From the NCBI RefSeq assembly GCF_056746865.1, contig NZ_CM163382.1: DNA of 64,000 bases, one strand, 5' to 3'. Under the pieces are notes generated by a model that saw only the letters and a program-made list of their open reading frames with translations, did no database searches and had not been told where the DNA came from. Each line of letters starts with the position of its first letter. Positions within the stretch are counted from its first letter, which is position 1. The translations under genes were made by a program, and so were the position numbers. Positions 42,344 through 61,713 of the stretch are shown here, piece after piece.

Positions 42344-42345
42344 GC

Positions 42346-42777
42346 ATGTCATTTACTGATATCTATCAGATTTCCGGCTCGGCGATGACGGCGCAAACCA
42401 TTCGTCTGAATACCGTTGCCAGTAACCTGGCGAATGCCAATGCACCTGCCGGCAGCGAGGCGCAGGCGTATAAAGCGCGCAGCCCGGTGTTTGCGGCGGT
42501 GTATCACCACAGCTTGCTGGCGGGAACGCATCGTCATGCCATTGATGGTGCCAGCGTGCAGGTGCAGGACGTGCTGCAAACCGGCGGGGCGGTGAAACGC
42601 TATGAACCGCATTCGCCGCTGGCGGATGCTAACGGGGATGTCTGGTATCCCGACGTCAACGTGGTGGAACAGATGGCGGACATGATGTCGGCCTCGCGCG
42701 ATTTTGAAACCAACGTCGATGTGCTCAACAACGTGAAAAGTATGCAGCAAAGCCTGCTGAAACTGGGAGAAGCCTGA
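42346..42777 (+). CDS. lfgC: Flagellar rod protein FlgC homolog
   Basis: 143-aa ORF with conserved rod N-terminal motif (…TIRLNTVASNLANANA…). Confidence 0.9.
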   Translation: MSFTDIYQISGSAMTAQTIRLNTVASNLANANAPAGSEAQAYKARSPVFAAVYHHSLLAGTHRHAIDGASVQVQDVLQTGGAVKRYEPHSPLADANGDVWYPDVNVVEQMADMMSASRDFETNVDVLNNVKSMQQSLLKLGEA

Positions 42778-43490: not shown

Positions 43491-43499
43491 TGTCCGGTG

Positions 43500-43597
43500 C
43501 CAAATTGCCTGATGCGCTTCGCTTATCAGGCCTACATGAAACTGCATGGTTTTGTAGGCCGGATAAGGCGTTCACGCCGCATCCGGCAAAACAACGG
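43500..43597. repeat. REP elements between lfgD and lfgE
   Basis: gcctgatgcg…cttatcaggcctaca … gtaggccggataaggcgttcacgccgcatccggca. Confidence 0.65.
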
Positions 43598-43633
43598 GCA
43601 CGCTGTCAAAATTTGAATTAACAGGACGAAACA

Positions 43634-44836: not shown

Positions 44837-45573
44837 TGGACCGTTTGATTTATACCGCCCTGAGCGGTGCTTCTCAGACCCTGTACGAGCAGCAGATCAG
44901 CGCCAACAACCTGGCGAACGTCAACACCAACGGTTTTCGCGCCGATATGGCAATGGCAACCAACGACAAGGTGAAAGGCGGCGGCTTCGACACGCGCTAT
45001 ATGGCGCAGGAAGGGGCCAGCGGCGTGAACGACAGCACAGGTGTTGCGGAGAAAACCGAACGCCCGCTGGACGTGGCGATTCAGGGCGCGGGTTACATTG
45101 CGGTGCAGGATAAAAACGGCAACGAAGTCTATACCCGCAACGGCAACATTCAGCAGGATGACCAGGGGCAACTGACCATCGACGGCAATCTGGTGCTGGG
45201 GGATAACGGCCCGATCATTCTGCCGCCGAACGCCATTGCTTCGTTTGGCAGCGACGGCACGCTGTCGGTGACGCCCGATGACGGCGACGTGACTGCAACC
45301 ATGGATATCGACCGCCTGAAGCTGGTGGATATTCCTGTCGCTAACCTGGCGAAAAATCCTGAAGGGATGCTGATAACTGCCGACGGCGTTCCGGCCCAGC
45401 GCGATGAAAATATCAAAGTCAGTGGCGGTTTTCTCGAAGGCAGCAACGTCTCGGCGGTGAGCGAGATGATGTCGTCCATCGCCATGAACCGCCAGTTTGA
45501 AGCGCAGATCAAGATGATGAAAACCGCCGAAGATATCAGCGACGCGGGCAACCGCTTATTGCGCGGCTCGTAA
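44836..45573 (+). CDS. lfgF: Flagellar proximal rod protein FlgF homolog
   Basis: 245-aa ORF with rod N-terminal motif (…ANNLANVNTNGFRA…). Confidence 0.85.
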   Translation: MDRLIYTALSGASQTLYEQQISANNLANVNTNGFRADMAMATNDKVKGGGFDTRYMAQEGASGVNDSTGVAEKTERPLDVAIQGAGYIAVQDKNGNEVYTRNGNIQQDDQGQLTIDGNLVLGDNGPIILPPNAIASFGSDGTLSVTPDDGDVTATMDIDRLKLVDIPVANLAKNPEGMLITADGVPAQRDENIKVSGGFLEGSNVSAVSEMMSSIAMNRQFEAQIKMMKTAEDISDAGNRLLRGS

Positions 45574-45579
45574 CCGCAC

Positions 45580-45718
<139 letters not shown>

Positions 45719-45751
45719 CCGCGGCCGAAAAACAACACGGAATTTACCACC

Positions 45752-46537
45752 ATGAACGCAGCACTATGGATCAGCAAAACCGGCCTCTCGGCGCAGGATG
45801 CTGAAATGAGCGCGATTGCCAACAACATCGCCAACGTTAACACCACCGGCTTCAAGCGTGACCGGGTGATGTTTCAGGATCTGTTCTACCAGACCCAGGA
45901 AGCGCCGGGCGCGATGCTCGATCAGAACAACATCATGCCGACCGGGCTGCAATTCGGTAGCGGCGTGCGCATTGTCGGCACCCAGAAAACCTTCACCGAA
46001 GGCAACGTCGAAACCACCGACAACGCCATGAATGTCGCCATTATGGGGCAGGGGTTTTTGCAGGTGCAAAAGGCCAACGGCGATATCGCCTATACCCGCG
46101 ACGGCAACTTGCAGGTGAACGCCGACGGCGTACTGACCAACTCGCAGGGCTTGCCGTTGCAGCCGGAAATCGACGTTCCGGCGGGGGCGACCAACGTCGC
46201 GTTTGGCGAGGACGGCACGGTGACGGCGATCTTACCCGGCGACAGCGATGTGACCGAGTTAGGGCAACTGACACTGGTGAACTTCGCCAACCCAGCGGGG
46301 CTTTCTGCCGAGGGCGACAACCTGTATCTGGAAACCGCCGCCAGCGGTCAGCCGACCGAAGGTGTGCCGGGCGAAGATGGGCTTGGCACCTTGCAGGACA
46401 ACGCGCTCGAAGGCTCGAACGTGGATATCGTCAACGAAATGGTGGCGATGATTACGGTGCAACGCGCGTACGAGATGAACGCCAAAATGGTGTCGGCAGC
46501 GGACGATATGTTGCAGTACATCAGCCAGACGCTGTAA
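45752..46537 (+). CDS. lfgG: Flagellar distal rod protein FlgG homolog
   Basis: Start MNAALWISKTGLSAQD… within ORF 45626..46537 (the upstream extension translates REP sequence); 261 aa. Confidence 0.9.
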   Translation: MNAALWISKTGLSAQDAEMSAIANNIANVNTTGFKRDRVMFQDLFYQTQEAPGAMLDQNNIMPTGLQFGSGVRIVGTQKTFTEGNVETTDNAMNVAIMGQGFLQVQKANGDIAYTRDGNLQVNADGVLTNSQGLPLQPEIDVPAGATNVAFGEDGTVTAILPGDSDVTELGQLTLVNFANPAGLSAEGDNLYLETAASGQPTEGVPGEDGLGTLQDNALEGSNVDIVNEMVAMITVQRAYEMNAKMVSAADDMLQYISQTL

Positions 46538-46548
46538 GGGAGTGGGGG

Positions 46549-46668
46549 CAACGTGCGGTCTGATGCCCTCACCCCGGCCCTCTCCCACAGGGAGAGGGGG
46601 AAAAGCGGTGCACGATGTAACAACGCGCACAGGTCAGTCCCCTCTCCCTTGAGGGAGAGGGTTAGGGT
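46549..46668. repeat. GC-rich palindromic intergenic repeat (same family as 39198..39315)
   Basis: ctgatgccctcaccccggccctctcccacagggagaggg … cccctctcccttgagggagagggttagggtgaggggg. Confidence 0.6.
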
Positions 46669-46743
46669 GAGGGGGAACAAACAGCTCCGCACCCACTAAA
46701 CAACCGGCCACCCCCGTGGCCTGCAACACTAAACAGGCAGAAC

Positions 46744-47409
46744 GTGAAAAATTATCTCTGGCTGGTGGCGCTGCTTCCACTCCTTAGCGGGTGTGAATCA
46801 CAGGCCATTCTGGTCAAAAAAGACGACGCATACTTTGCGCCACCCAAAACCGAAGCGCCGCCTCCGGCAGACGGGCGTGCCGGGGGCGTGTTTGAAACTG
46901 GCTACAACTGGTCGCTAACCGCCGACCGGCGGGCTTACCGCGTGGGCGATATCCTGACGGTGATCCTCGAAGAATCTACCCAGTCGAGCAAACAGGCGAA
47001 AACCAACTTCGGCAAAAACAACACCGTCGATATCGGCGCGCCGACCATTTTTGGTCACACCAAAGATAAGCTTTCCGGCTCTATCGACGCCAACCGCGAC
47101 TTTGACGGCAGCGCCACTTCCCAGCAGCAGAACAGCCTGCGCGGGGAGATCACCGTTTCCGTCCATGCGGTGCAGCCCAACGGCATTCTGGAAATTCGCG
47201 GCGAAAAATGGCTCACCCTCAACCAGGGTGATGAGTACATCCGCTTAAGCGGCCTGGTGCGCGCCGACGATATCCAGAACGACAACTCGGTTTCCTCCCA
47301 GCGGATCGCCGACGCCCGCATTTCCTATGCCGGACGCGGCGCGTTAAGCGACGCCAACGCCGCAGGCTGGCTGACGCGGTTGTTTAACCATCCTCTGTTC
47401 CCGATTTAA
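46744..47409 (+). CDS. lfgH: Flagellar L-ring lipoprotein FlgH homolog
   Basis: 221-aa ORF with lipoprotein signal (LLPLLSGC) and FlgH-like content. Confidence 0.9.
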
Positions 47410-48524
47410 TGCCGGAGAGTGCAATGCAAAACTGGATAAAGGCCGCAGCGATCGCTGTAAGCCTGGCGCTGCCCGGCGTGGCGCTGGCGCAATCGCTGGA
47501 GTCGCTGGTCAACGTACAGGGCGTGCGTGAAAACCAACTGGTCGGCTACAGCCTGGTGGTCGGCCTCGACGGCACGGGTGATAAAAACCAGGTCAAATTC
47601 ACCAACCAGACCATCACCAATATGCTGCGCCAGTTTGGCGTGCAGCTGCCGAATAAAATCGACCCGAAGGTGAAAAACGTCGCGGCGGTGGCGGTGAGCG
47701 CCACGCTGCCGCCGATGTACTCGCGCGGGCAGACCATTGACGTCACCGTTTCGTCGATTGGCGATGCCAAAAGTATTCGCGGCGGCACTTTATTGCTTAC
47801 GCAGCTGCACGGCGCAGATGGCGAAGTGTATGCCCTGGCGCAGGGAAGTGTGGTGGTGGGCGGGATGAATGCCACCGGGGCCAGCGGTTCCAGCGTGACG
47901 GTTAACACACCGACCGCCGGGTTAATTCCCAACGGCGCGACGGTGGAGCGTGAGATCCCCAGCGATTTTCAGATGGGCGACACCATCACCCTCAACCTGA
48001 AACGCCCGTCGTTTAAAGATGCCAACAATATTGCGGCGGCGATCAACGCTTCGTTTGGCGGCATCGCCACCGCGCAGAGTTCCACCAACGTTACCGTGCG
48101 CGCGCCCACCAGCCCCGGCGCGCGGGTGGCGTTTATGTCGCAACTGGATGATGTACAGGTGCAGGCAGAGAAAATCCGCGCCCGCGTGGTGTTTAACTCG
48201 CGCACTGGCACGGTGGTAATGGGCGATGGCGTTGCGCTGCACGCGGCGGCGGTGTCGCACGGCAGTTTGACCGTCTCGATTAACGAAACCAGCAACGTCA
48301 GCCAGCCGAATGCCTTTGCGGGCGGGCGCACGGCGGTAACGCCGCAGAGCAATATCGCGGTGAATCACGCCCGTCCGGGGGTGGTGAGTTTGCCGGAGTC
48401 GAGCAGCCTGAAAACGTTGGTTAATGCGTTGAACAGTTTAGGCGCGACGCCGGATGACATTATGTCGATTTTGCAGGCGCTGCATGAAGCGGGCGCGCTG
48501 GATGCCGACCTGGAGGTGATCTGA
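47409..48524 (+). CDS. lfgI: Flagellar P-ring protein FlgI homolog
   Basis: 371-aa ORF with signal peptide and FlgI-like content. Confidence 0.9.
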
Positions 48525-48823
48525 TGAAAGTTAACGGCAGCGGCGGGATTGATGGCAGCGACGCATTAATGGGGCCGAAGGTTCAGGCCAATGATATCAA
48601 GCAGGCTGCGGAACAGTTTGAGGCGATTTTTTTACGCAACATGTTGAAAGAGATGCGTAAAACCAACGAGTTGTTCGATTCGAAAGATAACCCGTTTAAC
48701 AGCGATTCGGTGCGCATGATGCAGGGGTTTTATGACGATGAGTTGTGTAACACCCTGGCGCAGCAGCACGGGATTGGGATTGCGGCGATGATTGTGAAGC
48801 AGTTGTCGCCGAAGCATAAATGA
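48524..48823 (+). CDS. lfgJ: FlgJ-like rod-binding protein (no peptidoglycan hydrolase domain)
   Basis: 99-aa ORF at the FlgJ position with a rod-binding-type sequence (…AAEQFEAIFLRNMLKEMRKT…) and no muramidase region. Confidence 0.75.
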   Translation: MKVNGSGGIDGSDALMGPKVQANDIKQAAEQFEAIFLRNMLKEMRKTNELFDSKDNPFNSDSVRMMQGFYDDELCNTLAQQHGIGIAAMIVKQLSPKHK

Positions 48824-48835
48824 GGCTCCGACGTT

Positions 48836-48933
48836 CGGTGCCTGATGCGACGCTGGCGCGTCTTATCAGGCCTACGAGTCGCCCGTATGTAGGCCGGATA
48901 AGGCGTTCACGCCGCATCCGGCACCCGGTTTAC
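48836..48933. repeat. REP elements between lfgJ and lfgK
   Basis: cctgatgcgacgctggcgcgtcttatcaggcctac … gtaggccggataaggcgttcacgccgcatccggca. Confidence 0.7.
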
Positions 48934-48998
48934 GGAACTTAAGAATCCCCAACCTAACGCCGCTTTTAACCGGCACGATTTACCGGTAAGGATCCAAC

Positions 48999-50375
48999 AT
49001 GGACATGATTAACATCGGCTACAGCGGCGCATCAACCGCGCAGGTGGAGCTGAACGTCACGGCGCAAAACACCGCCAACACCATGACCACGGGCTACACC
49101 CGTCAGGTGGCGGAGATCAGCACCATCGGTGCCAGCGGCGGTTCGCCGAACAGCGCCGGTAACGGCGTGCAGGTCGATAGCATTCGCCGCGTCTCCAACC
49201 AGTATCAGGTGAATCAGGTGTGGTATGCCGCCAGCGATTACGGCTATTACAGCACCCAGCAAGGGTATCTCACGCAACTGGAAGCGGTACTGAGCGACGA
49301 TAACAGCAGCCTGAGCGGCGGCTTCGATAACTTTTTCGCCGCCCTTAACGAAGCGACCACCAGCCCCGATGATTCCGCCCTGCGCGAGCAGGTGATCAGC
49401 GAAGCCGGGGCGCTGTCGCTGCGTATCGACAACACGCTGGATTACATCGACTCGCAAAGCACGGAAATCATCAGCCAGCAGCAGGCGATGGTGTCGCAAA
49501 TTAATACGCTCACCAGCGGTATCGCCAGCTATAACCAGCAAATCGCTCAGGCCGAAGCCAACGGCGATAACGCCTCCGCGCTGTACGACGCCCGCGACCA
49601 GATGGTGGAAGAACTCAGCGGGATGATGGATGTGCAGGTCAATATCGACGACCAGGGCAACTACAACGTTACCCTGAAAAACGGTCAACCGCTGGTGAGC
49701 GGGCAGCAAAGCTCGACCATCGCGCTGGAAACCAACGCCGACGGCACGCCGACCATGTCGCTGACCTTCGCCGGAACCACCTCGACGATGACCACCGACA
49801 CTGGAGGTTCATTAGGCGCACTGTTTGATTATCAAAACGACGTGCTGACGCCGCTGACCGACACCATCAACAGCATGGCGTCGCAGTTTGCCGATGCGGT
49901 CAACAATCAACTGGCGCAGGGCTACGATCTCAACGGCAACCCCGGCGAGCCGCTGTTTATTTATGACGCCAGCAACGCCGATGGCCCGCTGACCGTCAAC
50001 CCGGATATCACCGCCGATGAGCTGGCGTTTTCCAGTTCACCGGACGAAAGCGGTAACAGCGACAACTTACAGGCGCTGATCAATATCTCCACCGAACCGC
50101 TGGAGATAGCCAACCTCGGCAGCGTGACGGTCGGGCAGGCGTGCTCGTCAATCATCAGCAATATCGGCATTTACAGCCAGCAAAACCAGACGGAAGTCGA
50201 TGCCGCGTCCAATGTCTATTCCGCAGCGCAAAACCAGCAGAGCAGCGTCAGCGGCGTCAGCATGGACGAAGAGGCGGTTAACCTGATCACCTATCAACAA
50301 ATTTATGAAGCCAATCTGAAAGTCATTTCCGCCGGGGCCGAGATTTTCGATTCGGTGCTGGAAATGTGCAGCTAA
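48999..50375 (+). CDS. lfgK: Hook-associated protein 1 FlgK homolog
   Basis: 458-aa ORF with axial-protein termini and position after flgJ. Confidence 0.85.
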   Translation: MDMINIGYSGASTAQVELNVTAQNTANTMTTGYTRQVAEISTIGASGGSPNSAGNGVQVDSIRRVSNQYQVNQVWYAASDYGYYSTQQGYLTQLEAVLSDDNSSLSGGFDNFFAALNEATTSPDDSALREQVISEAGALSLRIDNTLDYIDSQSTEIISQQQAMVSQINTLTSGIASYNQQIAQAEANGDNASALYDARDQMVEELSGMMDVQVNIDDQGNYNVTLKNGQPLVSGQQSSTIALETNADGTPTMSLTFAGTTSTMTTDTGGSLGALFDYQNDVLTPLTDTINSMASQFADAVNNQLAQGYDLNGNPGEPLFIYDASNADGPLTVNPDITADELAFSSSPDESGNSDNLQALINISTEPLEIANLGSVTVGQACSSIISNIGIYSQQNQTEVDAASNVYSAAQNQQSSVSGVSMDEEAVNLITYQQIYEANLKVISAGAEIFDSVLEMCS

Positions 50376-50389
50376 GCGGGAGCGCGAAA

Positions 50390-51319
50390 ATGCGAGTAAC
50401 CACCCAACAAACCTACGTCTCGATGACGCAAAGTTTTAATAATCTCTCCGGCGATCTGGCGCATGTGGTCGAGCAGATGGCAACCGGCAAGGAAATTTTG
50501 CAGCCGTCGGATGACCCGATCGCCGCCACGCGCATCACCCAGTTGAACCGCCAACAGTCGGCGATTGAGCAGTATCAGAGCAATATCGACTCCGCGTCGG
50601 CGGGGTTAAGTCAGCAGGAATCAATCCTTGATGGCGTCAACAACAGCCTGCTGGCGGTGCGCGACGACCTGCTGGAAGCGGCGAATGGCACCAATACCGC
50701 CGATTCGCTCGCAAGTCTCGGGCAGGATATTGAGTCGCTCACCGAATCAATGGTCGTGGCGCTGAACTATCAGGACGAAGACGGGCATTACGTGTTTGGC
50801 GGTACCATCAACGATCAGCCGCCGATTGTGGCGGTGGACGATGACGGCGATGGCGTGACCGACAGCTACAGCTATCAGGGCAACAGCGACCACCGCCAGA
50901 CCACGGTGTCGAACGGCGTGGAAGTGGATACCAACGTGGCGGCGAGCGATTTCTTCGGCAGCAATTTAGATGTGCTCAACACACTGAATACCCTGTCGCA
51001 GGAGTTGCAAGACCCAAACGTTGACCCGGCCGATCCGCAGGTGCAGAGCGATATTCAGAACGCCGTTGATGTGGTGGACACCGCCTCGGATAACCTCAAC
51101 GCCTCGATTGCGTCGCTCGGCGAGACGCAGAACACCATGTCGATGTTGAGCGATGCGCAGACCGATATCTCTACCTCTAATGATGAGCTGATTGGTTCAT
51201 TACAGGATCTCGATTACGGCCCGGCGTCGATCACCTTTACCGGACTGGAAGTAGCAATGGAAGCTACCCTCAAGACTTACTCGAAAGTGAGTGAGTTGAA
51301 TTTGTTCAGCGTTCTCTAA
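50390..51319 (+). CDS. lfgL: Hook-associated protein 3 FlgL homolog
   Basis: Start MRVTTQQTYVSM… within ORF 50366..51319; flagellin-like N-terminus. Confidence 0.8.
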   Translation: MRVTTQQTYVSMTQSFNNLSGDLAHVVEQMATGKEILQPSDDPIAATRITQLNRQQSAIEQYQSNIDSASAGLSQQESILDGVNNSLLAVRDDLLEAANGTNTADSLASLGQDIESLTESMVVALNYQDEDGHYVFGGTINDQPPIVAVDDDGDGVTDSYSYQGNSDHRQTTVSNGVEVDTNVAASDFFGSNLDVLNTLNTLSQELQDPNVDPADPQVQSDIQNAVDVVDTASDNLNASIASLGETQNTMSMLSDAQTDISTSNDELIGSLQDLDYGPASITFTGLEVAMEATLKTYSKVSELNLFSVL

Positions 51320-52385: not shown

Positions 52386-52730
52386 ATGATGTGGGACGTC
52401 GAGACAACGGAGACTTTCGACAACTGGTTTGATGCCCAGACTGTTGCGCTGAAAGAAGATTTACTTGCTGCAATGCTGATTCTTGCTGAGTATGGCCCAC
52501 AGTTGGGCAGACCCTTTGCGGATACGGTTAATGATTCACAGTTTTCAAATATGAAAGAATTACGCGTCCAACATCAGGGAAACCCGGTACGTGCTTTTTT
52601 TGCTTTCGATCCTGCGCGCCGTGGCATTGTATTATGTGCGGGTGATAAAACGGGGTTAAATGAGAAAAAGTTTTATCGCGATATGATCAAGCTCGCTGAT
52701 TCTGAATACCGTAAGCATCTGAAAAAGTAA
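52386..52730 (+). CDS. Type II toxin, RelE/ParE superfamily (HigB-like)
   Basis: 114-aa ORF MMWDVETTETFDNWFDAQ…GNPVRAFFAFDPARRGIVLCAGDKTG…, the toxin class usually encoded upstream of an HTH antitoxin. Confidence 0.7.
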   Translation: MMWDVETTETFDNWFDAQTVALKEDLLAAMLILAEYGPQLGRPFADTVNDSQFSNMKELRVQHQGNPVRAFFAFDPARRGIVLCAGDKTGLNEKKFYRDMIKLADSEYRKHLKK

Positions 52731-52739
52731 GGAACGATA

Positions 52740-53039
52740 ATGGCTACTCTAAAAGAACTGATGGCAAAGCAAAGCCCTGAAAGCCAGGTGCGTATTGCGG
52801 CAAAAGTTGAGGAAATGCGCCAGACCATCGCCTTGCATCAGCTGAGAGAAGAACTCAATATTTCGCAAACGGAAATGGCGGCAGCGATGGGCATTAAGCA
52901 ACCGACTCTTGCAAAAATGGAGCAGGCAGATAACGATCCTCGGTTGTCTACGCTAAAACGCTATGTTGCGGCTTTAGGTGGGGAATTGAGTATCGACGTT
53001 AAACTGCCGAATGGTAAGAGAATTGCATTTCAGATTTAA
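52740..53039 (+). CDS. HTH (XRE-family) antitoxin, HigA-like
   Basis: 99-aa ORF 10 bp after the toxin; HTH segment LNISQTEMAAAMGIKQPTLAKME. Confidence 0.7.
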   Translation: MATLKELMAKQSPESQVRIAAKVEEMRQTIALHQLREELNISQTEMAAAMGIKQPTLAKMEQADNDPRLSTLKRYVAALGGELSIDVKLPNGKRIAFQI

Positions 53040-53096: not shown

Positions 53097-53990
53097 TCAG
53101 CATTTCTGCACAGTATTTAACAACTTCTCTAAATTCTGATACATCGCGCTATTAATATCGCTATTCTGCCAGCTATCCACATTAAAAGTTAATTGCCAGC
53201 TACCGTTGCACTGGTTGCGCAGAACAATATCACTCTCCAGTCGGTTACGAACATATTTATAATAGGTTGTCATTGTCATATTATGCGCTGACAATAAATT
53301 ATCGAGTTTGTCTTTTCCTGGTGCGAGGGTTTGTGACAGTAACGGTACGGAATTATTTTCCTTTCCAGAACTAAGATGAAATATTTTTATTCTTGGACTG
53401 TTAATTGACTCTTTTACCAGTTGCGGGGCGTCAGGTGTACTTTTCAAGTGTGAATACCCCACGGTTGAGCCAACCAATATAACAGCTGCGGCCAACGCTA
53501 ACCCCATCAGTCCTTTATGTTTTTTTCTAACAGGCACATACGGTGTTGTCGAAGATATCTCTTCTGGGGCTGTATCCTGTATCTGGTCGGTAATAATCAG
53601 CGCTTCTGCAGGCGATGACTCCGGCAAAGACACATACTCTTTATTGCATAAGTAACCTTTCTTCGGAATTGTTTTAATAATGTTCTGTTGTTTGCCATCA
53701 TCGTCGATAGCAACGCGCAACGCATGGATCGCCGTCGGCAGGCTGTTTCCGCCGACAATACGGTTCTTCCATACTTCGGCACATAAATAAGATCGCGATA
53801 AAACCACATCGGCATTTTTTGCTAATGTTTCCAGCAAAATAAAATGGTATTCGCCGAGACGACGTGTTTCACCCGTTTCGCAATGTATTAAGGCATTAAG
53901 CGACGGGTCCATCCGCCAGTTGTTGATAATAATACTCATAGTTGAGTTTACCTTAGCAAGGGATAAATGTTTCCTGATAGTGCTTTGCAT
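53097..53990 (-). CDS. lafZ: ToxR/CadC-like membrane-anchored transcriptional regulator (LafZ-like)
   Basis: 297-aa ORF: N-terminal winged-helix OmpR/PhoB-type DNA-binding region, a single TM segment (GLMGLALAAAVILVGSTVGY) and a C-terminal periplasmic part. AT-rich. Confidence 0.6.
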   Translation of the reverse strand: MQSTIRKHLSLAKVNSTMSIIINNWRMDPSLNALIHCETGETRRLGEYHFILLETLAKNADVVLSRSYLCAEVWKNRIVGGNSLPTAIHALRVAIDDDGKQQNIIKTIPKKGYLCNKEYVSLPESSPAEALIITDQIQDTAPEEISSTTPYVPVRKKHKGLMGLALAAAVILVGSTVGYSHLKSTPDAPQLVKESINSPRIKIFHLSSGKENNSVPLLSQTLAPGKDKLDNLLSAHNMTMTTYYKYVRNRLESDIVLRNQCNGSWQLTFNVDSWQNSDINSAMYQNLEKLLNTVQKC

Positions 53991-54424
53991 AAAGCACAGT
54001 CTTATACGTCCCTGAGAAGATGATTTTTCTGCGTGATAATTAATATTTTATGGTGATAAGATTATTCTTAATCACTATATAGCGTGGAAATGTAACGAAA
54101 TGACAGGACAGGTACAATAGCCAAATGTGTACTATTTGCAACGCAATGTAAATTTTGGCATCAGTACATTGAGAACAAAACGCGATAATTGATGACAATC
54201 TTAACTATATCAAGCGTTTGATAAAGACATATTTTGATACCTGGCCATGTGGCAGATATTGCTAATAATCTTTTTATCTGAATTTAAACTCTGCTTTTTT
54301 TAGCTAAAAGTGGCATCGGATAATACGTGGCGAAAAAATTTTAACGGCGATTTTAAGTTTGCTCCTGAGGTGTCGTTTTTACAGGGTATCGAAACGAAAA
54401 CGATTAATCCCAAGGAGCAGTATC

Positions 54425-55339
54425 ATGTTATCTATTAACACCAATAACGCCTCAATGGCCGCCGTTAATGCAATCAGCAAAAGCAGCTCTTCTCTGTCTA
54501 CATCTATGGAACGCCTGGCGACAGGTAACCGGATTAACTCTTCTGCCGATGACGCCGCAGGCAAACAAATTGCTAACCGTCTGACAGCACAGTCCAGCGG
54601 TATGGGTGTTGCGCTGAGCAACATCAATGATGCCACCGCGATGCTGCAAACCGCTGACAGCATGTTCGACGAAATGTCTGACGTGCTGGGTCGTATGAAA
54701 GACCTGTCAACTCAGGCAGCGAACGGCACCTACAGCGACGACGACCTGCAGGCGATGCAGGACGAATACGACGAACTGGGCCAGCAGATGTCTGACATGC
54801 TGCAAAACACCACTTACGGCGGCACCAACCTGTTCGGTGTTTCCGGTACCAGCAACACCGGTACTGACGGTCTGTTCCAGAGCGCGGTAACTTTCCAGGT
54901 GGGCGCGGAATCTTCCGACACCATGACCGTGAATATTTCAAGCCAGCTGAATACCCTGGTGACGGATCTTTCTGCAATCAGCAACTCCTTTAGTGCGGAT
55001 CAGGCTGACACCACTGGCACCGCAGGCGTTTCTGGCGGTACTGAGCTGACTGCGTCTGGCTCGGCTAACCAGATGATCACCAGCATCTCTACCGCGATGG
55101 ATGACGTGTCTCAGATCCAGTCCAAGCTGGGTGCCTCTATCAACCGTCTGAACGACACTGCCAACAACCTGACCAGTATGCAAGACAACACCGAAGTCGC
55201 TATCGGTAACATCATGGATACCGACTACGCGACGGAAGCGTCCAATATGACCAAACAGCAAGTGCTGATGCAGACTGGCATCACCATGCTGAAACAGTCC
55301 AACAGCATGTCCAGCATGGTTTCCAGCCTGCTGCAGTAA
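54425..55339 (+). CDS. lafA: Lateral flagellin
   Basis: Start MLSINTNNASMAAVNAISKS… within ORF 54359..55339; flagellin N- and C-terminal domains (…LMQTGITMLKQSNSMSSMVSSLLQ). Confidence 0.9.
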   Translation: MLSINTNNASMAAVNAISKSSSSLSTSMERLATGNRINSSADDAAGKQIANRLTAQSSGMGVALSNINDATAMLQTADSMFDEMSDVLGRMKDLSTQAANGTYSDDDLQAMQDEYDELGQQMSDMLQNTTYGGTNLFGVSGTSNTGTDGLFQSAVTFQVGAESSDTMTVNISSQLNTLVTDLSAISNSFSADQADTTGTAGVSGGTELTASGSANQMITSISTAMDDVSQIQSKLGASINRLNDTANNLTSMQDNTEVAIGNIMDTDYATEASNMTKQQVLMQTGITMLKQSNSMSSMVSSLLQ

Positions 55340-55382
55340 TGGCGGACTTGCCGATGCGGCGTAAACGCCTTATCCGGCCACG

Positions 55383-55432
55383 AACAACACCGCCTGCGGG
55401 CGGTGTTGTGCTTTCAGCGGCAGGCTTTTTTC
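55383..55432 (+). terminator. Putative terminator after lafA
   Basis: Hairpin aacaacaccgcc tgc gggcggtgttgt, then a second GC stem with a T-run. Confidence 0.45.
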
Positions 55433-55496
55433 CGCCAGAACGGAAACGTCATTTCCGCCTGTTTTTCAATCTATTGATTATTCACATAAAAAATAT

Positions 55497-55512
55497 TGGC
55501 ACGCCTTTTGCC
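55497..55512 (+). promoter_or_regulatory. Sigma-54 (-24/-12) promoter upstream of lafB (fliD)
   Basis: TGGCAC GCCTT TTGCC, exact TGGCAC-N5-TTGC match, about 32 bp upstream of the lafB ATG. Confidence 0.7.
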
Positions 55513-55543
55513 ATTAACCTGACATCGTTACCCGGAGTCATCA

Positions 55544-56860
55544 ATGATTAACCCAAGAACCATTGCGCAAGAAATTGCTTATGCGGATGTCGCCACCCAG
55601 GCGGCAAATTTGCAGGAGAAGCAGACCGAGCTGGACGCTGAAAGCAGCGGCCTGGACTCGCTCAGCTCGGCGTTAAGCGATTTCCAGAGCGCCGTTGACG
55701 CGCTGAACAGCGATACCGACGGCCCGGTGACTTTTGCCGCCACCAGCAATAATGACTCGGCGACCGTTTCCGCTAACTCGCAGGCACAGGCGGGAAGCTA
55801 CTCGTTTTTCGTTGAGCAACTGGCGCAGGGGCAGCAAACCACGTTCAGTATGGGCGACGACGCCTTTTCCGCTACCGGTACTTTTGAACTGACGATGGGC
55901 GACAGCACCATGGATATCGATCTGTCGGCGGCAGATCAGAACGGTGACGGCGACGGTTTTATCGACGCCAGCGAACTGGTGAACGCGATTAACGACTCCG
56001 ATGATAATCCAGGCGTTTCAGCGGCGTTGGTGAAAACCGACGGCACCACCACCATTATGCTCACCTCCGATAGCACCGGGGCGCAGAGCGCGTTTTCGGT
56101 GAGCGTAACGGGGCATGATGCCAGCAACGATAGCACCAGCGCGCCCGTTGCCACGGTTGTTTCCTCAGCCCAGGACGCGATTATTCATCTCGGTAGCGCC
56201 ACGGGCCCGGCGATCACCAACAGCAGCAATACGTTTGATGATGTGATCCCCGGCGTCACCATGACTTTTACCGAAGTCAGCGATTCTGACAGCGACCTCA
56301 CCACTTTTAACATCAGCGAAGATTCCAGCTCCAGCCAGGAGAAAGTACAGACTTTTGTCGATGCCTATAACACCTTGATTGATACGGTTGATTCGCTAAC
56401 CACTCACGGTGATGACAGTACCAGCGCCGGGGTATTTGCAGGCGACGCCGGACTCAGTTCACTGGCGAACCAGCTCGATGACATCGCCCATGCCAGCTAC
56501 AACGGCGTGTCGATTGTTGACTATGGCATCACCCTCGATTCTCACGGCCACTTACAGATTGACTCCGACCAGTTCAACGACGAAATGGCGAAAAATCCTG
56601 ACGGTCTGACCTCTATTTTCGTTGGCGACAACAGCATGGTAGCGCAGATGGACGACCTGATTAACACCTACACGGACTCCAGCAACGGCATCATCACCCT
56701 GCGCCAGCAGAACATTGACGATCAGATGAGCAAAATTCAGGACGAAGGCGATCAGCTTACTGATACCTATAACGCCAACTACGACCGTTATCTGGAGGAG
56801 TACACCAACACGCTGGTCGAGGTGTACACCATGAAAGCCAGCATGGCGGCATTCGCGTAA
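55544..56860 (+). CDS. lafB: Flagellar filament cap protein FliD homolog
   Basis: 438-aa ORF with FliD-like termini. Confidence 0.85.
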   Translation: MINPRTIAQEIAYADVATQAANLQEKQTELDAESSGLDSLSSALSDFQSAVDALNSDTDGPVTFAATSNNDSATVSANSQAQAGSYSFFVEQLAQGQQTTFSMGDDAFSATGTFELTMGDSTMDIDLSAADQNGDGDGFIDASELVNAINDSDDNPGVSAALVKTDGTTTIMLTSDSTGAQSAFSVSVTGHDASNDSTSAPVATVVSSAQDAIIHLGSATGPAITNSSNTFDDVIPGVTMTFTEVSDSDSDLTTFNISEDSSSSQEKVQTFVDAYNTLIDTVDSLTTHGDDSTSAGVFAGDAGLSSLANQLDDIAHASYNGVSIVDYGITLDSHGHLQIDSDQFNDEMAKNPDGLTSIFVGDNSMVAQMDDLINTYTDSSNGIITLRQQNIDDQMSKIQDEGDQLTDTYNANYDRYLEEYTNTLVEVYTMKASMAAFA

Positions 56861-56882
56861 CTCAGAAGGAATATCCCTAAAG

Positions 56883-57275
56883 ATGTACCAAGTACAGGAC
56901 GGCTATTCGCAATATAAAGAGGTCGATCTCGCGGCGCGTACTGCGGCGGCCTCTCCGCTTGAACTGGTGCTGGTGCTGTTCGCCGGGCTTCTCGACGAGC
57001 TGGAACGCGCCAAAAGCCATATTGAAGGGCGGCGTTTCGAGAAGAAAGCCCAGAGCATCAATAAATGCATCGACATTCTCAATGCGCTCACCAGTTCGCT
57101 GGAGTTTGAAACCGGCGGCGAGCTGGTGGTCAACCTTTCGCGACTCTATGACCACTGTGTGTATCGCTTGTATGAGGCCAGCGGCGAACTGTCGGCAGAG
57201 AAAATCGATGAAGTGATGCTGATCTTAAGCAACCTGCGCGAAGGCTGGGAAGGGCTTTCGGGCAAGCTGGGTTAA
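56883..57275 (+). CDS. lafC: Flagellin chaperone FliS homolog
   Basis: 130-aa ORF MYQVQDGYSQYKEVDLAARTAAASPLELVLVLF…, FliS-like. Confidence 0.85.
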   Translation: MYQVQDGYSQYKEVDLAARTAAASPLELVLVLFAGLLDELERAKSHIEGRRFEKKAQSINKCIDILNALTSSLEFETGGELVVNLSRLYDHCVYRLYEASGELSAEKIDEVMLILSNLREGWEGLSGKLG

Positions 57276-57279
57276 GACG

Positions 57280-57591
57280 ATGGAAAAACAACGCAGGCAA
57301 CTTTTCGCACTGGTTGAGGCGATGAACGAAGCCCTCGACAAGCAACGCTGGCGACGGCTTCCGGCACTGCATCAGCAGTTGATGCGCCAGTTTCACGATT
57401 ACGTGGCGGCGGAAACCGACGCGGCGCAGTTGTGTGCGGTGAAGGCGCAGCTGTACGGCGCGTTTAATGCCCTGATTAAACGGCGCGAGCAGCGTGCAGA
57501 AGTGTTGAAGGCGCGTATGGAACAGCATCAGCGGCATCAGGAAGGCGTACTGGCCTACTCAATTGTTAATTTACTTTCGGAGAAGTCATGA
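57280..57591 (+). CDS. lafD: FliT-like small helical protein
   Basis: 103-aa helical ORF after fliS. Confidence 0.5.
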   Translation: MEKQRRQLFALVEAMNEALDKQRWRRLPALHQQLMRQFHDYVAAETDAAQLCAVKAQLYGAFNALIKRREQRAEVLKARMEQHQRHQEGVLAYSIVNLLSEKS

Positions 57592-58646
57592 ATCCGGCAT
57601 TGCTTGCCACGCTCGGAACGCTTGCGGAAACGGCGTCGCTGAAAACGGACATCTTACCGCCGGTGAGCGGTGAAAACGCGCCCGCGTTTACCCTGCCGAA
57701 AATGGCGGGCGCGGCGGTGGCAGAGCGCGTTCATAGCGCTAAAACCAGTCAGCAACAGGCGACGCGCCCGCAGGAGAACGATCCGGTGGCGATGCAGGCG
57801 CTAATGGCGCTGTTACTTCCGCAACCTGCCGCGCCGCATCAGGAGACGCCGCAGCCGCGAAACGCCGCAACATCGCCAGTTATTCAGCAATTGACGAAAG
57901 CGGTGGTGCAAAACGCGCCGCAACGCTCGACACAACAGCAGGAACTCACGCCGTTGCCGCCACAGTTGCAGGAACTGATCGGTCAGTTGCCGCAGGCGAA
58001 ACCCGAACAGCAGGCCAGACTGGCGACTTACGCCAGTGAAGATTTACATGCCATTGCGCCGACGCAGCCGCGCGTCTCAACACAGCCAGCTCGCCCGAAA
58101 ACTGAACTAACCCGTGTGACCGCGCGCCCGCAGGTCGAGCGTAAAACGGAAAAAGTGACGGACAGCGAACCGGTTATTGCGCGTGCGGTGTTGCAGGTTA
58201 AGACGCCGGAACTGGTCAGCGATCATCAGGAGATTGTCGCCAAACCAGCCACGCTTTCGATGGACGAACTGGGTGAAAAACTGACGACGCTTTTGAAAGA
58301 TCAGATCCACTTTCAGCTCAACAAACAACAGCAGATCTCCACCATCCGTCTCGATCCACCGTCGCTTGGCAAGCTTGAGATCGCCGTACAACTCGACAAC
58401 GGCAAACTGATGGTGCACATCGGCGCGAATCAAAGCGAAGTTTGCCGCGCGTTACAGCAGTTTAGCGACGATCTCCGCCAGCATCTGACGGCGCAAAATT
58501 TTATGGAGGTGAACGTACAGGTTTCCTCCGAAGGGCAGTCGCAGCAACAACAGTCGGGCCATCAGCAGGAAGAGGTGAGTGCCGCCTTACAGCTTGATGA
58601 TGCGCCTCAATTTCAACAGAACGAATCCGTTTTGATCAAAGTGTAA
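57588..58646 (+). CDS. lafE: Hook-length control protein FliK homolog
   Basis: 352-aa ORF with Pro/Gln-rich middle and FliK-type C-terminal domain (…ISTIRLDPPSLGKLEIAVQLDNGKLMVHIGANQ…). Confidence 0.8.
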   Translation: MNPALLATLGTLAETASLKTDILPPVSGENAPAFTLPKMAGAAVAERVHSAKTSQQQATRPQENDPVAMQALMALLLPQPAAPHQETPQPRNAATSPVIQQLTKAVVQNAPQRSTQQQELTPLPPQLQELIGQLPQAKPEQQARLATYASEDLHAIAPTQPRVSTQPARPKTELTRVTARPQVERKTEKVTDSEPVIARAVLQVKTPELVSDHQEIVAKPATLSMDELGEKLTTLLKDQIHFQLNKQQQISTIRLDPPSLGKLEIAVQLDNGKLMVHIGANQSEVCRALQQFSDDLRQHLTAQNFMEVNVQVSSEGQSQQQQSGHQQEEVSAALQLDDAPQFQQNESVLIKV

Positions 58647-58653
58647 AGGCAAT

Positions 58654-59121
58654 ATGAAGAAAATCGTGGTGGCGGGCGTGGTCAGCGCCGTTCTGGCGTT
58701 GGTGGTGGGGGCCGGAGCTGGATGGGGTGTCTGGCATCATTATGCCGGAAAAGGAAAACCGACGGCCGTTGCACGGGCGGAAACGGTGGAAACCCTGGAT
58801 GAAAGCAAAAGCGTGTTTGTGACGTTGCCGGAAACCATTGTCACGCTGCATGACAACAACGGTGCGGACCATTATTTGTCGGCGGAATTAGTGATGGTGG
58901 TCGCCAGTGATAAAGAAGCGGAAAAAATAAAACATCAGGAGCCGCTGTATCAAAGTATTGCAGTTGAATGCCTGACGGAAATGAAATTTGAAGATTTGCG
59001 CGGCATGAAAATATCCGCCATCCGCAAACTGATTTCTGATGCGTTAAAGAAAGATCTTCAGCGTCGCAAAATGAGCGCACCGTATAAGGATTTGCTGGTG
59101 AAAAAAGTGGTCTTCCAGTAA
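58654..59121 (+). CDS. lafF: Flagellar basal-body protein FliL homolog
   Basis: 155-aa ORF with N-terminal TM and FliL-like body. Confidence 0.8.
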   Translation: MKKIVVAGVVSAVLALVVGAGAGWGVWHHYAGKGKPTAVARAETVETLDESKSVFVTLPETIVTLHDNNGADHYLSAELVMVVASDKEAEKIKHQEPLYQSIAVECLTEMKFEDLRGMKISAIRKLISDALKKDLQRRKMSAPYKDLLVKKVVFQ

Positions 59122-59140
59122 TCACCAGGCGGATATAAAC

Positions 59141-59857
59141 ATGCTACAGGACGTATTCGAGTCAGAAGAATTTGCTGCCGCGCCGGTATTAACCCCGCAG
59201 CAGGAGAGCCACTACTTGCAGGCCTATCTACCGTTGGTGCGTAAAGTGGTGCGGCAACTTGCTCCGCAGTGTAATTGCATTATTGACCGTCAGGATATGG
59301 AACAAACGGCGTTAATGGGGCTGCTTAATGCCATTCGTCGCTATGGGCTGCCGGACGAAGGTTTTGCGGGCTATGCCGTGCACCGGATTCGCGGCGCGAT
59401 CCTGGATGAGCTGCGCGCTCTCGACTGGCGACCGCGCCAGCTGCGACAGAAATATCATCAGATGAAAGATCTGATTCGTGAGACGCGCAAAAAACTGGGG
59501 CACGAACCGGAGTGGTCAGAACTGGCCGTGGAAGGGATTTCGCATGAAGATTATCTCGAATATCAGCAACTGGAAGGGGCGGAAACGCTCGCCAGCCTTG
59601 ACGAACTGCTGAACGGTGAAGGGCCAGGCATTCCACTTGCTGGCAGGGAACTGGAAGATCAGTTTGTTACCCAGCAAATGCTGCAATACGCGCTTTCACA
59701 ATTAAGCGAAAAAGAGCAACTGATCCTCTCCATGTATTACCAGCATGAGATGAATCTCAAAGAGATTGCGCTGGTATTAGGGCTAACCGAAGCCCGAATT
59801 TGTCAACTGAATAAACAGATCGCGCAGAAAATTCGTGATTTTGTCTATCCGAATTAA
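59141..59857 (+). CDS. lafS: Flagellar sigma-28 factor (FliA homolog)
   Basis: 238-aa ORF with sigma-70 family regions 2 and 4 (…RIRGAILDELRALDWRPR… ; …LKEIALVLGLTEARICQLNKQ…). Confidence 0.85.
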   Translation: MLQDVFESEEFAAAPVLTPQQESHYLQAYLPLVRKVVRQLAPQCNCIIDRQDMEQTALMGLLNAIRRYGLPDEGFAGYAVHRIRGAILDELRALDWRPRQLRQKYHQMKDLIRETRKKLGHEPEWSELAVEGISHEDYLEYQQLEGAETLASLDELLNGEGPGIPLAGRELEDQFVTQQMLQYALSQLSEKEQLILSMYYQHEMNLKEIALVLGLTEARICQLNKQIAQKIRDFVYPN

Positions 59858-59869
59858 AGTGAAGAAATC

Positions 59870-60733
59870 ATGCAAAAAATATTAGGTTTACTGGTGGTGC
59901 TCGGCTGCGTATTTGGCGGTTATTTTGAAGCGGGCGGGCAATTAGTGGCTATCTGGCAACCGGCGGAAATGATCATTATTTTGGGGGCGGGTTTCGGGGC
60001 AATGATTATTGGTAATCCGAAACATGTGCTGAAAGAGATTGCTCATCAAATTAAAGGCGTGATCAGTAAAAAACAGCTCGGGCCGGAGTTTCAGCGCCAG
60101 CTATTAATGTGTCTGTATGAGTTGCTCGAAATGGTGCAAAACGGTGGTCTGCGCATGTTGGATCAGCATATTGAGCAGCCGGAAGAGAGCACCATTTTCC
60201 AGAAATACCCGCTGGTGTTAACCCAGAAGCGGCTGGTGACCTTTATTGCCGATAACTTTCGCCTGATGGCGATGGGCAAAATCGACGCCCACGAACTGGA
60301 AGGGATTCTCGATCAGGAGCTGGACACCGCCGAAGAGTCGCTGCTAACGCCGTCACGCTCGCTGCAACGTACCGCCGAGGCGATGCCAGGGTTTGGCATT
60401 TGCGCGGCGGTGCTGGGCATCATCATCACCATGCAGTCGATTGATGGGTCTATCGCCCTGATTGGCCTGAAAGTGGCGGCAGCGCTGGTGGGGACGTTTT
60501 TAGGCGTCTTTATCTGCTACTGCCTGATGGACCCGCTCGCCAACGCCATGGAACAACAGGCGCGGGCGGAACATTCTTTGCTGGAATGCGTGCGCACCGT
60601 GCTGGTGGCGCAGGCAGGCGGCAAACCGACGCTGCTGGCAGTGGACGCCGGGCGTAAGCTGCTGCATCTGGCGTCCAAACCGACCTTCGCCAACCTCGAC
60701 GCGTGGGTGAATGCGATGCTGGAGCAAGAATAA
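59870..60733 (+). CDS. lafT: Flagellar motor stator protein MotA homolog
   Basis: 287-aa four-TM ORF with MotA-like content. Confidence 0.85.
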   Translation: MQKILGLLVVLGCVFGGYFEAGGQLVAIWQPAEMIIILGAGFGAMIIGNPKHVLKEIAHQIKGVISKKQLGPEFQRQLLMCLYELLEMVQNGGLRMLDQHIEQPEESTIFQKYPLVLTQKRLVTFIADNFRLMAMGKIDAHELEGILDQELDTAEESLLTPSRSLQRTAEAMPGFGICAAVLGIIITMQSIDGSIALIGLKVAAALVGTFLGVFICYCLMDPLANAMEQQARAEHSLLECVRTVLVAQAGGKPTLLAVDAGRKLLHLASKPTFANLDAWVNAMLEQE

Positions 60734-60735
60734 GC

Positions 60736-61659
60736 ATGAGAAAGACGGGCAACCGCCGCGAGCGTGGGGCAAAAACCACCATCGTCCGGCGGCAGATCAA
60801 AAAAAATCATGCCGGGCATCACGGCGGGGCGTGGAAGGTGGCGTTCGCCGACTTTACTTTGGCAATGATGGCGCTATTTATGACGCTGTGGATTGTCAAC
60901 AGCGTCAGTAAATCCGAGCGTGAAAGCATTATCGCCGCGCTGCACGGGCAGTCGATTTTTAACGGTGGCGGGCTGTCGCCGTTAAATAAAATCAGACCGT
61001 CTCATCCGCCAAAACCTGCCACCGTGGCGGTGCCGGAAGAGACGGAGAAAAAAGCGCATGACGTCAACGAGAAAACGGCGCTGCTGAAGAAGAAATCCGC
61101 TACTGAGCTTGGCGAGCTGGCAACCAGTATCAACACCATTGCCCGTGATGCGCATATGGAAGCGAATCTGGAGATGGAGATTGTTCCCCAGGGACTGCGC
61201 GTGCTGATTAAAGATGACCAGAACCGCAATATGTTTGAACGCGGCAGCGCGCAGATTATGCCGTTCTTTAAAACTTTGCTGGTGGAGTTAGCACCGGTTT
61301 TTGATTCGCTCGACAATAAGATCATCATCACCGGGCATACCGATGCGATGGCCTACAAAAACAATATCTACAACAACTGGAACCTTTCGGGCGATCGCGC
61401 GCTTTCAGCTCGTCGGGTGCTGGAAGAGGCCGGAATGCCGGAAGATAAAGTGATGCAGGTAAGTGCAATGGCGGACCAGATGCTGCTGGATGCCAAAAAT
61501 CCGCAAAGCGCGGGCAACCGGCGCATTGAGATTATGGTGCTGACCAAAAGTGCGTCCGATACGCTGTATCAATACTTTGGTCAGCATGGGGATAAAGTGG
61601 TGCAACCGCTGGTGCAAAAGCTGGATAAGCAGCAGGTGCTTTCGCAGCGAACGCGTTAA
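60736..61659 (+). CDS. lafU: Flagellar motor stator protein MotB homolog (OmpA-like C-terminus)
   Basis: Start MRKTGNRRER… within ORF 60703..61659; TM/plug region (…FADFTLAMMALFMTLWIV…) and peptidoglycan-binding motif (…ITGHTDA…NW.LS..RA…). Confidence 0.85.
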   Translation: MRKTGNRRERGAKTTIVRRQIKKNHAGHHGGAWKVAFADFTLAMMALFMTLWIVNSVSKSERESIIAALHGQSIFNGGGLSPLNKIRPSHPPKPATVAVPEETEKKAHDVNEKTALLKKKSATELGELATSINTIARDAHMEANLEMEIVPQGLRVLIKDDQNRNMFERGSAQIMPFFKTLLVELAPVFDSLDNKIIITGHTDAMAYKNNIYNNWNLSGDRALSARRVLEEAGMPEDKVMQVSAMADQMLLDAKNPQSAGNRRIEIMVLTKSASDTLYQYFGQHGDKVVQPLVQKLDKQQVLSQRTR

Positions 61660-61697: not shown

Positions 61698-61713
61698 CTG
61701 TATACTTTACCAG
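61698..61713 (+). promoter_or_regulatory. LexA (SOS) box upstream of dinB
   Basis: CTGtatactttacCAG, CTG-N10-CAG with AT-rich centre, about 17 bp upstream of the dinB ATG. Confidence 0.7.

Follow-up and report, generated by a model that had tools for sequence, protein, structure and literature searches.

Flag-2 gene content and the sigma-54 element before lafB

The 64-kb stretch of DNA analysed here, referred to below as the window, contains the second flagellar locus of E. coli, the lateral-type Flag-2 system. Many complete E. coli chromosomes matched positions 54000-57000 with 100% identity and have lafA, fliD and fliS annotated at this place, and about 1300 of 5426 complete E. coli genomes matched the region. 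The gene map (Table 1) was assembled from the annotation of two matching E. coli strains together with lists of open reading frames, and all of the Flag-2 reading frames were open in the window. Downstream of the lateral flagellin gene lafA lie lafB (fliD), lafC (fliS), lafD, lafE (fliK), lafF (fliL), lafS (sigma-28), lafT (motA) and lafU (motB-like). The content and order fliD, fliS, (fliT), fliK, fliL, fliA, motA, motB were confirmed by annotation and by tblastn, and the LafS product carries sigma-70 regions 2 and 4. Intergenic gaps from lafB to lafU measured 0-22 nt, and seven terminator-like sites were found over these genes where 7.8 were expected, which is no excess. We infer that lafB to lafU would be transcribed as one operon and that lafA forms a separate, monocistronic unit.

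Table 1. Positions of genes and sequence features in the window, in map order.
Feature	Coordinates	Strand	Remarks
lfhA to lfiM	23060-29289	-	annotation and ORF list
lafK	29677-30657	+	intact sigma-54 activator gene; AAA+ with GAFTGA, then HTH_8
lfiE to lfiJ	as far as 36132		annotation and ORF list
Glycosyltransferase gene	36683-39154	-	variable region
309-aa gene	39333-40262	-	variable region
Third sigma-54 site CGGCACGCTTATTGCA	40312-40297	-	before the 309-aa gene
Palindrome before the 309-aa gene promoter	40353-40367		49 nt from -24 GG
lfgN, lfgM, lfgA	40389-41926	-	
Candidate lfgM promoter TTAAAGTTT-N13-CCGCTTTA	about 41175-41145	-	counterpart of the lafA candidate; before the anti-sigma gene lfgM
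lfgB palindrome GGAAGAACAACTTCC	41890-41904		60 nt from -24 GG; inside the 5' end of the lfgA ORF
Sister sigma-54 promoter TGGCACGGCGATTGCT	41956-41971	+	36 nt before lfgB
lfgB to lfgL	42008-51319		annotation and ORF list
lafW, then RelE/ParE and HTH gene pair			between lfgL and lafZ in the map
lafZ	53097-53939	-	
Candidate LafS-type lafA promoter TTAAGTTT-N11-GTCGTTTTTA	54353-54381	+	cross-genus footprint; TTAAGTTT 54353-54360, 11-nt spacer, GTCGTTTTTA 54372-54381
lafA	54425-55339	+	lateral flagellin gene; predicted monocistronic
REP element	55350-55379	+	single; between lafA stop codon and terminator
Probable lafA terminator hairpin ACAACACCGCC-TGCG-GGCGGTGTTGT	55384-55409	+	11-bp stem, tetraloop
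Extra half-site TTCCGCC	55430-55436	+	just upstream of the palindrome; read from sequence
Second hairpin	55441-55457		followed by CCTGTTTTTC
Palindrome GGAA-ACGTCAT-TTCC, extended CGGAAACGTCATTTCCGCC	55442-55456		candidate LafK upstream activating sequence
IHF-like site AATCAATAGATTG	55467-55479	-	fits WATCAA-N4-TTR; between palindrome and -24
-24/-12 element TGGCACGCCTTTTGCC	55497-55512	+	GG 55498-99, GC 55510-11
Predicted lafB transcription start	about 55522-55524	+	about 20 nt before ATG
Shine-Dalgarno GGAG	55534-55537	+	
lafB start codon	55544-55546	+	
lafB (fliD)	55544-56860	+	
lafC, D, E, F, S, T, U	after lafB, up to 61659	+	dinB next in the map
Predicted lafB-lafU operon	55544-61659	+	

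The original prediction was that an exact sigma-54 promoter, TGGCAC-GCCTT-TTGCC, lies about 32 bp before lafB. This element (TGGCACGCCTTTTGCC) is present in the 204-bp lafA-lafB spacer, where it is non-coding and co-oriented with lafB, and the lafB ATG begins 31 nt past its last base. The description as exact holds for TGGCAC-N5-TTGC, to which the match is perfect. It does not extend to the final base of TGGCAC-N5-TTGCW, for which 15 of 16 positions fit: the lafB site has C behind the -12 GC, where T or A stands in the consensus and in most other genera. TGGCAC-N5-TTGC was found twice in the 64 kb against 0.22 matches expected, and at least two matches occurred in 3 of 100 shuffles.

We scanned both strands of the 64 kb for -24/-12 elements, requiring the GG and GC and allowing at most one other mismatch. 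Five sites were recovered, two of them within genes and three intergenic. Each of the intergenic sites lies 31-36 nt before a gene that heads a Flag-2 unit (lfgB, lafB or the 309-aa gene at 39333-40262) and points in the same direction as that gene. The lfgB promoter was also kept in Citrobacter, Rahnella and Enterobacter. The -24/-12 element at lafB contains an inverted repeat (TGGCA...TGCCA) that had been called terminator-like on the minus strand; this call was dismissed as a by-product of the sigma-54 consensus.

Conservation of the lafB element was examined in 80 genomic loci that encode diverse relatives of LafB, all of which keep the order lafB-lafC-(lafD)-lafE-lafF-lafS-lafT. An element was scored when it lay within 100 nt of the start codon with the GG and GC fixed and no more than two other mismatches. 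By this measure 37 of the 80 loci carry a -24/-12 element, 25-78 nt before the lafB homologue. They comprise all of the Enterobacterales Flag-2 loci (Escherichia, Pseudocitrobacter, Citrobacter, Phytobacter, Leminorella, Enterobacter, Pseudescherichia, Dryocola, Rahnella, Rosenbergiella and Tatumella) plus three Pseudomonas/Serpens loci, two of Vibrio and one of Photobacterium. The 5-nt spacer of the element varies between genera while the GG and GC are kept. Three further Vibrio loci have TGGCAT-N5-TTGAT before lafB. The 40 loci without a -24/-12-like element are betaproteobacterial or unclassified, and wherever their flank could be read the lafB homologue directly follows lfiI-lfiJ with no intervening flagellin gene. 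The element is thus absent where lafB directly follows lfiIJ and present where lafB begins a new unit. Within E. coli the promoter block was kept in about 1200 genomes at 89-100% identity, while the adjoining REP array turns over. On this comparative evidence, 55497-55512 is a real and strongly conserved sigma-54 promoter, predicted to start the lafB-lafU operon.

A promoter may be intact and still lack a present-day role, if Flag-2 in E. coli is a cryptic relic that is not expressed. A search for LafA protein in the ST131 strain EC958, grown in LB broth or on soft agar at 28 or 37°C, found none (PMC4637896), so the whole Flag-2 system may be silent under laboratory conditions. Flag-2 is also absent or truncated in most E. 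coli, as the proportion of genomes matching the region indicates, and related strains have insertions of IS elements and group II introns flanking it. Against decay stand the open state of every Flag-2 reading frame in the window and the constancy of the promoter block in those 1200 or so genomes beside a REP array that changes. The Flag-2 system of strain PCN033 is likewise intact, the motility shown there not being assigned to Flag-2 (PMC4578781), and Flag-2 genes of Yersinia enterocolitica are expressed at low temperature, as cited in a passage of a paper on E. albertii (PMC11420993). We therefore regard a relic without function as unlikely. The lafB promoter would provide a natural reporter for the conditions that switch on the so far silent Flag-2 system.

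LafK and the palindrome upstream of the promoter

A sigma-54 promoter calls for an activator, and the candidate encoded at this locus is LafK. Domain analysis of LafK identified Sigma54_activat (E=1.7e-64), an AAA lid and a Fis-type HTH_8 (E=7e-9), and found no N-terminal sensory domain; the Walker A and GAFTGA motifs are present in the translation. A published comparative study places LafK among the activators without a signal domain, like PspF. Lacking a sensory domain, LafK should have an activity that depends mainly on the amount of LafK made.

The palindrome GGAA-N7-TTCC is centred 49 nt upstream of the lafB -24 GG. Five copies occur in the 64 kb against 1.0 expected, and three of these are upstream of the three intergenic sigma-54 sites. 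The exact palindrome was found upstream in all 37 of the loci bearing the sigma-54 element and in the three Vibrio loci of the TTGAT type, and within 300 nt in one of the 40 loci without a -24/-12-like element. Across about 1 Mb of these loci, the pairing of palindrome and sigma-54 element occurred almost only before lafB. In Citrobacter amalonaticus, Rahnella and Enterobacter the pair was present at both lfgB (61-64 nt) and lafB (49-50 nt), and in Citrobacter it was also found before a gene with a FliB_C domain (49 nt). The distances from palindrome to GG fall into classes of 47-52, 60-64, 69, 92-94 and 104 nt, which are roughly whole helical turns apart.

From 44 distinct sites in many genera, the consensus gc-GGAAR-N5-YTTCC-gc was derived. 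The arms never vary and show no compensatory changes, and the central 5 nt are free even within E. coli. An additional half-site (TTCCGCC) was read just upstream of the lafB palindrome, and other genera have further GGAA/TTCC or GCGGAA half-sites in the corresponding position. Between the palindrome and the -24 lies an IHF-like site, of which the TTGAT/CTGAT core is kept in place in most gammaproteobacterial loci; it may be a binding site for IHF. No related locus had a LafK homologue in its 6-kb flanks, and the literature searched gave no description of a LafK binding motif.

These features suggest a mechanism of the following kind. The sigma-54 RNA polymerase would wait at the lafB promoter as a closed complex while LafK occupies GGAA-N7-TTCC, some 50 nt further upstream than the -24 element. 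Bending of the DNA at the IHF-like site may help LafK to reach the polymerase, and ATP hydrolysis by LafK would then open the promoter, from which the eight genes lafB-lafC-lafD-lafE-lafF-lafS-lafT-lafU would be transcribed. Since lafS belongs to the operon, this promoter would be the point at which LafK and sigma-54 (class 2) hand over control to sigma-28 (class 3: lafA and lfgM-lfgN).

The palindrome might instead have nothing to do with LafK, which would then act at a genuine sigma-54 promoter from solution or from another site. Some sigma-54 activators do work without enhancer binding, and the palindrome at lafB forms a hairpin with a T-run that was picked up by a terminator scan, so it could be a terminator or other RNA hairpin. 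A third candidate role is as a target of LafZ, which is ToxR/OmpR-like. In these regions, however, true terminators vary in stem sequence, whereas the palindrome arms were invariant at all 44 sites around a free centre. The copy at lfgB is inside the divergent lfgA reading frame, with no co-directional gene upstream, and thus cannot terminate an upstream gene there; the copy at the 40312-40297 promoter has no T-run. No LafZ homologue was detected in the palindrome-bearing Vibrio and Photobacterium loci or in two of the three Pseudomonas-group loci, and the LafZ-like match in Serpens is weak (27%), leaving LafZ a weaker candidate than LafK. In NtrC-family activators the HTH_8 domain binds inverted repeats as a dimer. 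We consider it improbable that the palindrome is something other than a LafK site at this promoter.

The broader proposal, that the palindrome is a LafK enhancer phased upstream of the lateral and Flag-2 sigma-54 promoters of Enterobacterales, Vibrionaceae and Pseudomonas, is evenly balanced in our judgement. If it is correct, the palindrome defines a LafK regulon, which in E. coli and Citrobacter would consist of the lfgB, lafB and flagellin-modification promoters. The palindrome at lafB would then be both an enhancer and a back-up terminator for lafA. The hairpin with the T-run (55441-55457) fits the upstream region of the lafB promoter better than it fits the role of lafA terminator.

Termination and initiation of lafA transcription

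A hairpin after lafA had also been predicted, and the spacer in fact holds two, together with a single REP element. An Rfam search of 53900-55700 gave only sub-threshold matches to the REP-derived naRNA4 and no known RNA element. E. coli strains have 0-3 REP copies after the lafA stop codon, and the spacer ranges from 175 to 409 bp among the aligned sequences, in which conservation extends from the first hairpin as far as the lafB ATG. The first hairpin, at 55384-55409, is conserved within Escherichia and Pseudocitrobacter. When 17 loci were folded, 15 had a hairpin with a T-run after the lafA stop codon, and the other two, of the Rosenbergiella/Tatumella type, had a weaker hairpin only. The stems differ between genera with pairing kept (CACCGCC/GGCGGTG, ATACCGC/GCGGTAT, GCCTCC/GGAGGC), and because sequence changes while pairing is kept, 55384-55409 is the probable intrinsic terminator of lafA. 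The tail of the E. coli hairpin, GCTTTC, makes a weak T tract, and initiation at the lafB promoter may accordingly be supplemented by some transcription that runs on from lafA into lafB.

The original prediction found no convincing sigma-28 consensus before lafA and left its promoter unassigned. The first point was borne out by a strict FliA scan (TAAAGTTT-N10-13-GCCGATAA, with a cut-off of at least 11/16 and at least 6/8 in the -10). No FliA-type TAAAGTTT-N11-GCCGATAA reached the cut-off upstream of lafA in the lafA orientation, and the scan gave nothing convincing at any intergenic site in the correct orientation. The second point can now be revised, as a candidate was obtained by footprinting across Enterobacterales genera, where one conserved pair of motifs, TTAAGTTT-N11-GTCGTTTTTA, stands upstream of lafA. 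Compared with the E. coli FliA consensus, TTAAGTTT matches at 7/8 positions and GTCGTTTT (up to 54379) at 4/8 with the CG core in register. The -35 and the spacing therefore fit sigma-28, while the 3' half of the -10 is TTTA and not ATAA. A motif of the same type precedes lfgM in four genera (E. coli, Citrobacter, Rahnella and Enterobacter), and a relaxed pattern had three matches in the 64 kb against 1.1 expected, two of them being the lafA and lfgM sites.

These matches suggest a LafS-specific -10 of the form GyCGyTTTA, and TWAAGTTT-N11-13-GyCGyTTTA is put forward as a candidate LafS consensus at lafA and lfgM. Both genes are expected sigma-28 targets, which makes the motif reasonable as a LafS-type promoter, and lafA is probably read from the sigma-28-type promoter at 54353-54381. 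Two other sequences upstream of lafA, TGGCAGATATTGCT (about 54249) and TGGCATCGGATAATAC (about 54322), were considered as sigma-54 sites and rejected, having the wrong GG-GC spacing or no GC; both failed the scan.

It is very improbable that the -24/-12 motif is unused and lafB-lafU arises only as sigma-28-dependent read-through from the lafA promoter. The weak GCTTTC tract means that termination may be incomplete, but the sigma-28 gene lafS would then depend on a promoter that itself looks sigma-28-type, and the circuit would have no starting point. In nearly all of the genera folded, lafA is followed by a terminator. The motif (chance expectation 0.22 per 64 kb) is kept in place across families and orders while adjoining bases drift, and the loci that lack it are those with lafB directly after lfiIJ. 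The conserved element, the terminator, the close packing of the genes and the intact LafK thus support the predicted arrangement, a sigma-54/LafK operon from lafB to lafU apart from lafA. As a whole, the reading in which 55497-55512 is the sigma-54 promoter of lafB-lafU, lafA is expressed apart from a sigma-28-type promoter and LafK acts from the palindrome has, in our estimate from sequence comparison, a probability of about 0.85.

Relation to known flagellar and sigma-54 systems

The arrangement is of a textbook type that is established in Vibrio and has been described in E. coli, and the lafB sigma-54 promoter itself is already known. Sigma-54 sites upstream of lfgB and lafB were described in E. 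coli PCN033 (Liu et al. 2015, BMC Genomics, PMC4578781). The locus, the two genes and the motif TGGCAC-N5-TTGC are the same, and the two matches in the window are these sites. That report concerns a different strain and states the presence of the motif, without treating its conservation, upstream elements, the terminator or the operon. The finding of the lafB promoter thus confirms existing annotation and literature and adds little by itself; novelty, if any, is confined to the palindrome proposed as a LafK site and the promoter motif of LafS type. Together with the third sigma-54 promoter, which precedes flagellin-modification genes, these two candidates may be of modest use for work on lateral flagella.

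According to passages in two papers, LafK and sigma-54 control the class II genes of V. parahaemolyticus, of which the sigma-28 gene is one, and lafA belongs to a different cluster from fliDSTKLA-motAB; the class 2 hierarchy is credited there to Stewart and McCarter 2003 (PMC4481668, PMC3658858). In an rpoN mutant of V. parahaemolyticus the lafBCD transcripts were reduced, and a site beginning AGGCAC was predicted before lafB; the lafB fragment gave no gel shift with purified RpoN alone (PMC9817140). The E. coli locus shares with V. parahaemolyticus the gene order including the sigma-28 gene, a separate lafA immediately upstream, a LafK-type activator and a -24/-12 element before lafB. The two differ in spacing, as the Vibrio -24/-12 elements are farther from the start codon (77-78 nt, compared with 31 nt here) and the Vibrio palindrome is one helical turn farther from the element (60 nt, compared with 49 nt here). 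Several Vibrio species also have a weaker -12 region (TTGAT), and the E. coli lafA-lafB intergenic region, unlike that of Vibrio, contains REP elements.

Classical sigma-54 promoters such as nifH and glnHp2 combine an upstream activator site with an IHF bend. The lafB region resembles such enhancer-dependent promoters in having a palindrome, an A/T-rich IHF-like site and a -24/-12 element in that order, and an activator with HTH_8. The candidate upstream site is unusually close, its centre lying about 75 nt from the predicted transcription start, whereas 100-150 nt is typical of the classical promoters, and LafK, like PspF and unlike the activators of those promoters, has no sensory domain.

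The Flag-1 fliDST operon of Salmonella and E. coli offers a further comparison. In Flag-1, fliD is divergent from fliC and is served by an FlhDC-dependent class 2 promoter and a sigma-28-dependent class 3 promoter, and the fliDST operon includes neither fliA nor motAB. Both systems have a unit of fliD with fliS and fliT that lies beside the flagellin gene and is separate from it. The Flag-2 unit differs in being co-directional with the flagellin gene, in its predicted dependence on sigma-54 and in carrying the sigma-28 and stator genes.

A palindrome upstream of the sigma-54 promoters

An invariant GGAA-N7-TTCC palindrome was found 47-104 nt 5' of every sigma-54 -24 element in the lateral and Flag-2 flagellar loci, and the 44 distinct sites gave the consensus gc-GGAAR-N5-YTTCC-gc. 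The spacings between palindrome and -24 element grouped into classes approximately one helical turn apart. We propose the palindrome as a candidate binding site for the sigma-54 activator LafK. No earlier description of it was met in the searchable literature.

A third sigma-54-like promoter, CGGCACGCTTATTGCA, has its own palindrome and precedes genes of the variable region, an ORF (39333-40262) followed by a glycosyltransferase gene (36683-39154). In Citrobacter, where this promoter is conserved, the counterpart of the ORF encodes a FliB_C (flagellin lysine methylase) domain. Together these findings suggest that the LafK/sigma-54 class includes genes for flagellin modification.

Exact copies of the palindrome also occur without a nearby sigma-54 element. 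One such copy in the window lies within lfgG (46165-46179) and one in an unrelated upstream region (4532-4546); Rahnella (L084) and Enterobacter (L085) have copies between lfgA and lfgM, and Enterobacter has another roughly 450 nt 5' of lafA. These copies may be chance matches or additional regulator sites.

Palindromes, promoters and other elements (window coordinates unless a locus is named)
Feature	Position	Strand	Context
Palindrome with sigma-54 element	55442-55456		lafB
Palindrome with sigma-54 element	41890-41904		lfgB
Palindrome with sigma-54 element	40353-40367		ORF 39333-40262
Palindromes in related loci	L003-L055, L077, L083-L085		upstream of lafB or lfgB
Palindrome without sigma-54 element	46165-46179; 4532-4546
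Palindrome without sigma-54 element	L084 1213		Rahnella
Palindrome without sigma-54 element	L085 1234; 13586		Enterobacter
Third sigma-54-like promoter	40312-40297	-	ORF 39333-40262
Sigma-28-like motif	54353-54381	+	lafA
Sigma-28-like motif	~41175-41145	-	lfgM
REP/BIME insertion hotspot	55340-55383		lafA stop to lafA terminator
RelE/ParE toxin and HTH antitoxin-like genes	52389-53039		lafW-lafZ
LexA-box-like palindrome	61698-61713		lafU-dinB

LafK and the sigma-28-like motif

E. coli LafK (29677-30657) is a short sigma-54 activator of 326 aa with neither an N-terminal receiver nor a FleQ domain. Presumably it is the expression of LafK itself that determines how active it is. The 387-bp lfiM-lafK spacer contains REP elements, and neither a sigma-54 site nor the palindrome was found in it.

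The upstream regions of lafA and lfgM share a sigma-28-like motif, TWAAGTTT-N11-13-GyCGyTTTA, which is kept across Enterobacterales genera. LafS, the Flag-2 sigma factor, probably recognises this sequence. Where the predicted LafS motif departs from that of E. coli FliA is the -10 element, within its 3' half.

The lafB promoter across loci

Among E. coli and close relatives (L086-L089, L003 and L008), the stretch from the lafA stop to its terminator is a hotspot for REP/BIME insertion. REP copy number there ranges from 0 to 3 and the lafA-lafB spacer from 175 to 409 bp, while the promoter block 3' of the hotspot stays constant. In three Vibrio loci (L027, L029, L031), TGGCAT-N5-TTGAT lies about 100 nt 5' of the lafB homologue; GA replaces the -12 GC and the upstream palindrome is retained. 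The -12 element of this promoter appears relaxed in part of Vibrio. The betaproteobacterial secondary flagellar loci (L033-L082) appear to be wired differently: the lafB homologue directly follows lfiE-lfiJ with no flagellin gene in between, and both the sigma-54 element and the palindrome are missing before it.

No terminator-like hairpin was seen 3' of lafU, and the 70-bp lafU-dinB spacer contains the LexA-box-like palindrome CTGTATACTTTACCAG. The toxin and antitoxin-like genes between lafW and lafZ are an insertion in the flagellar cluster.
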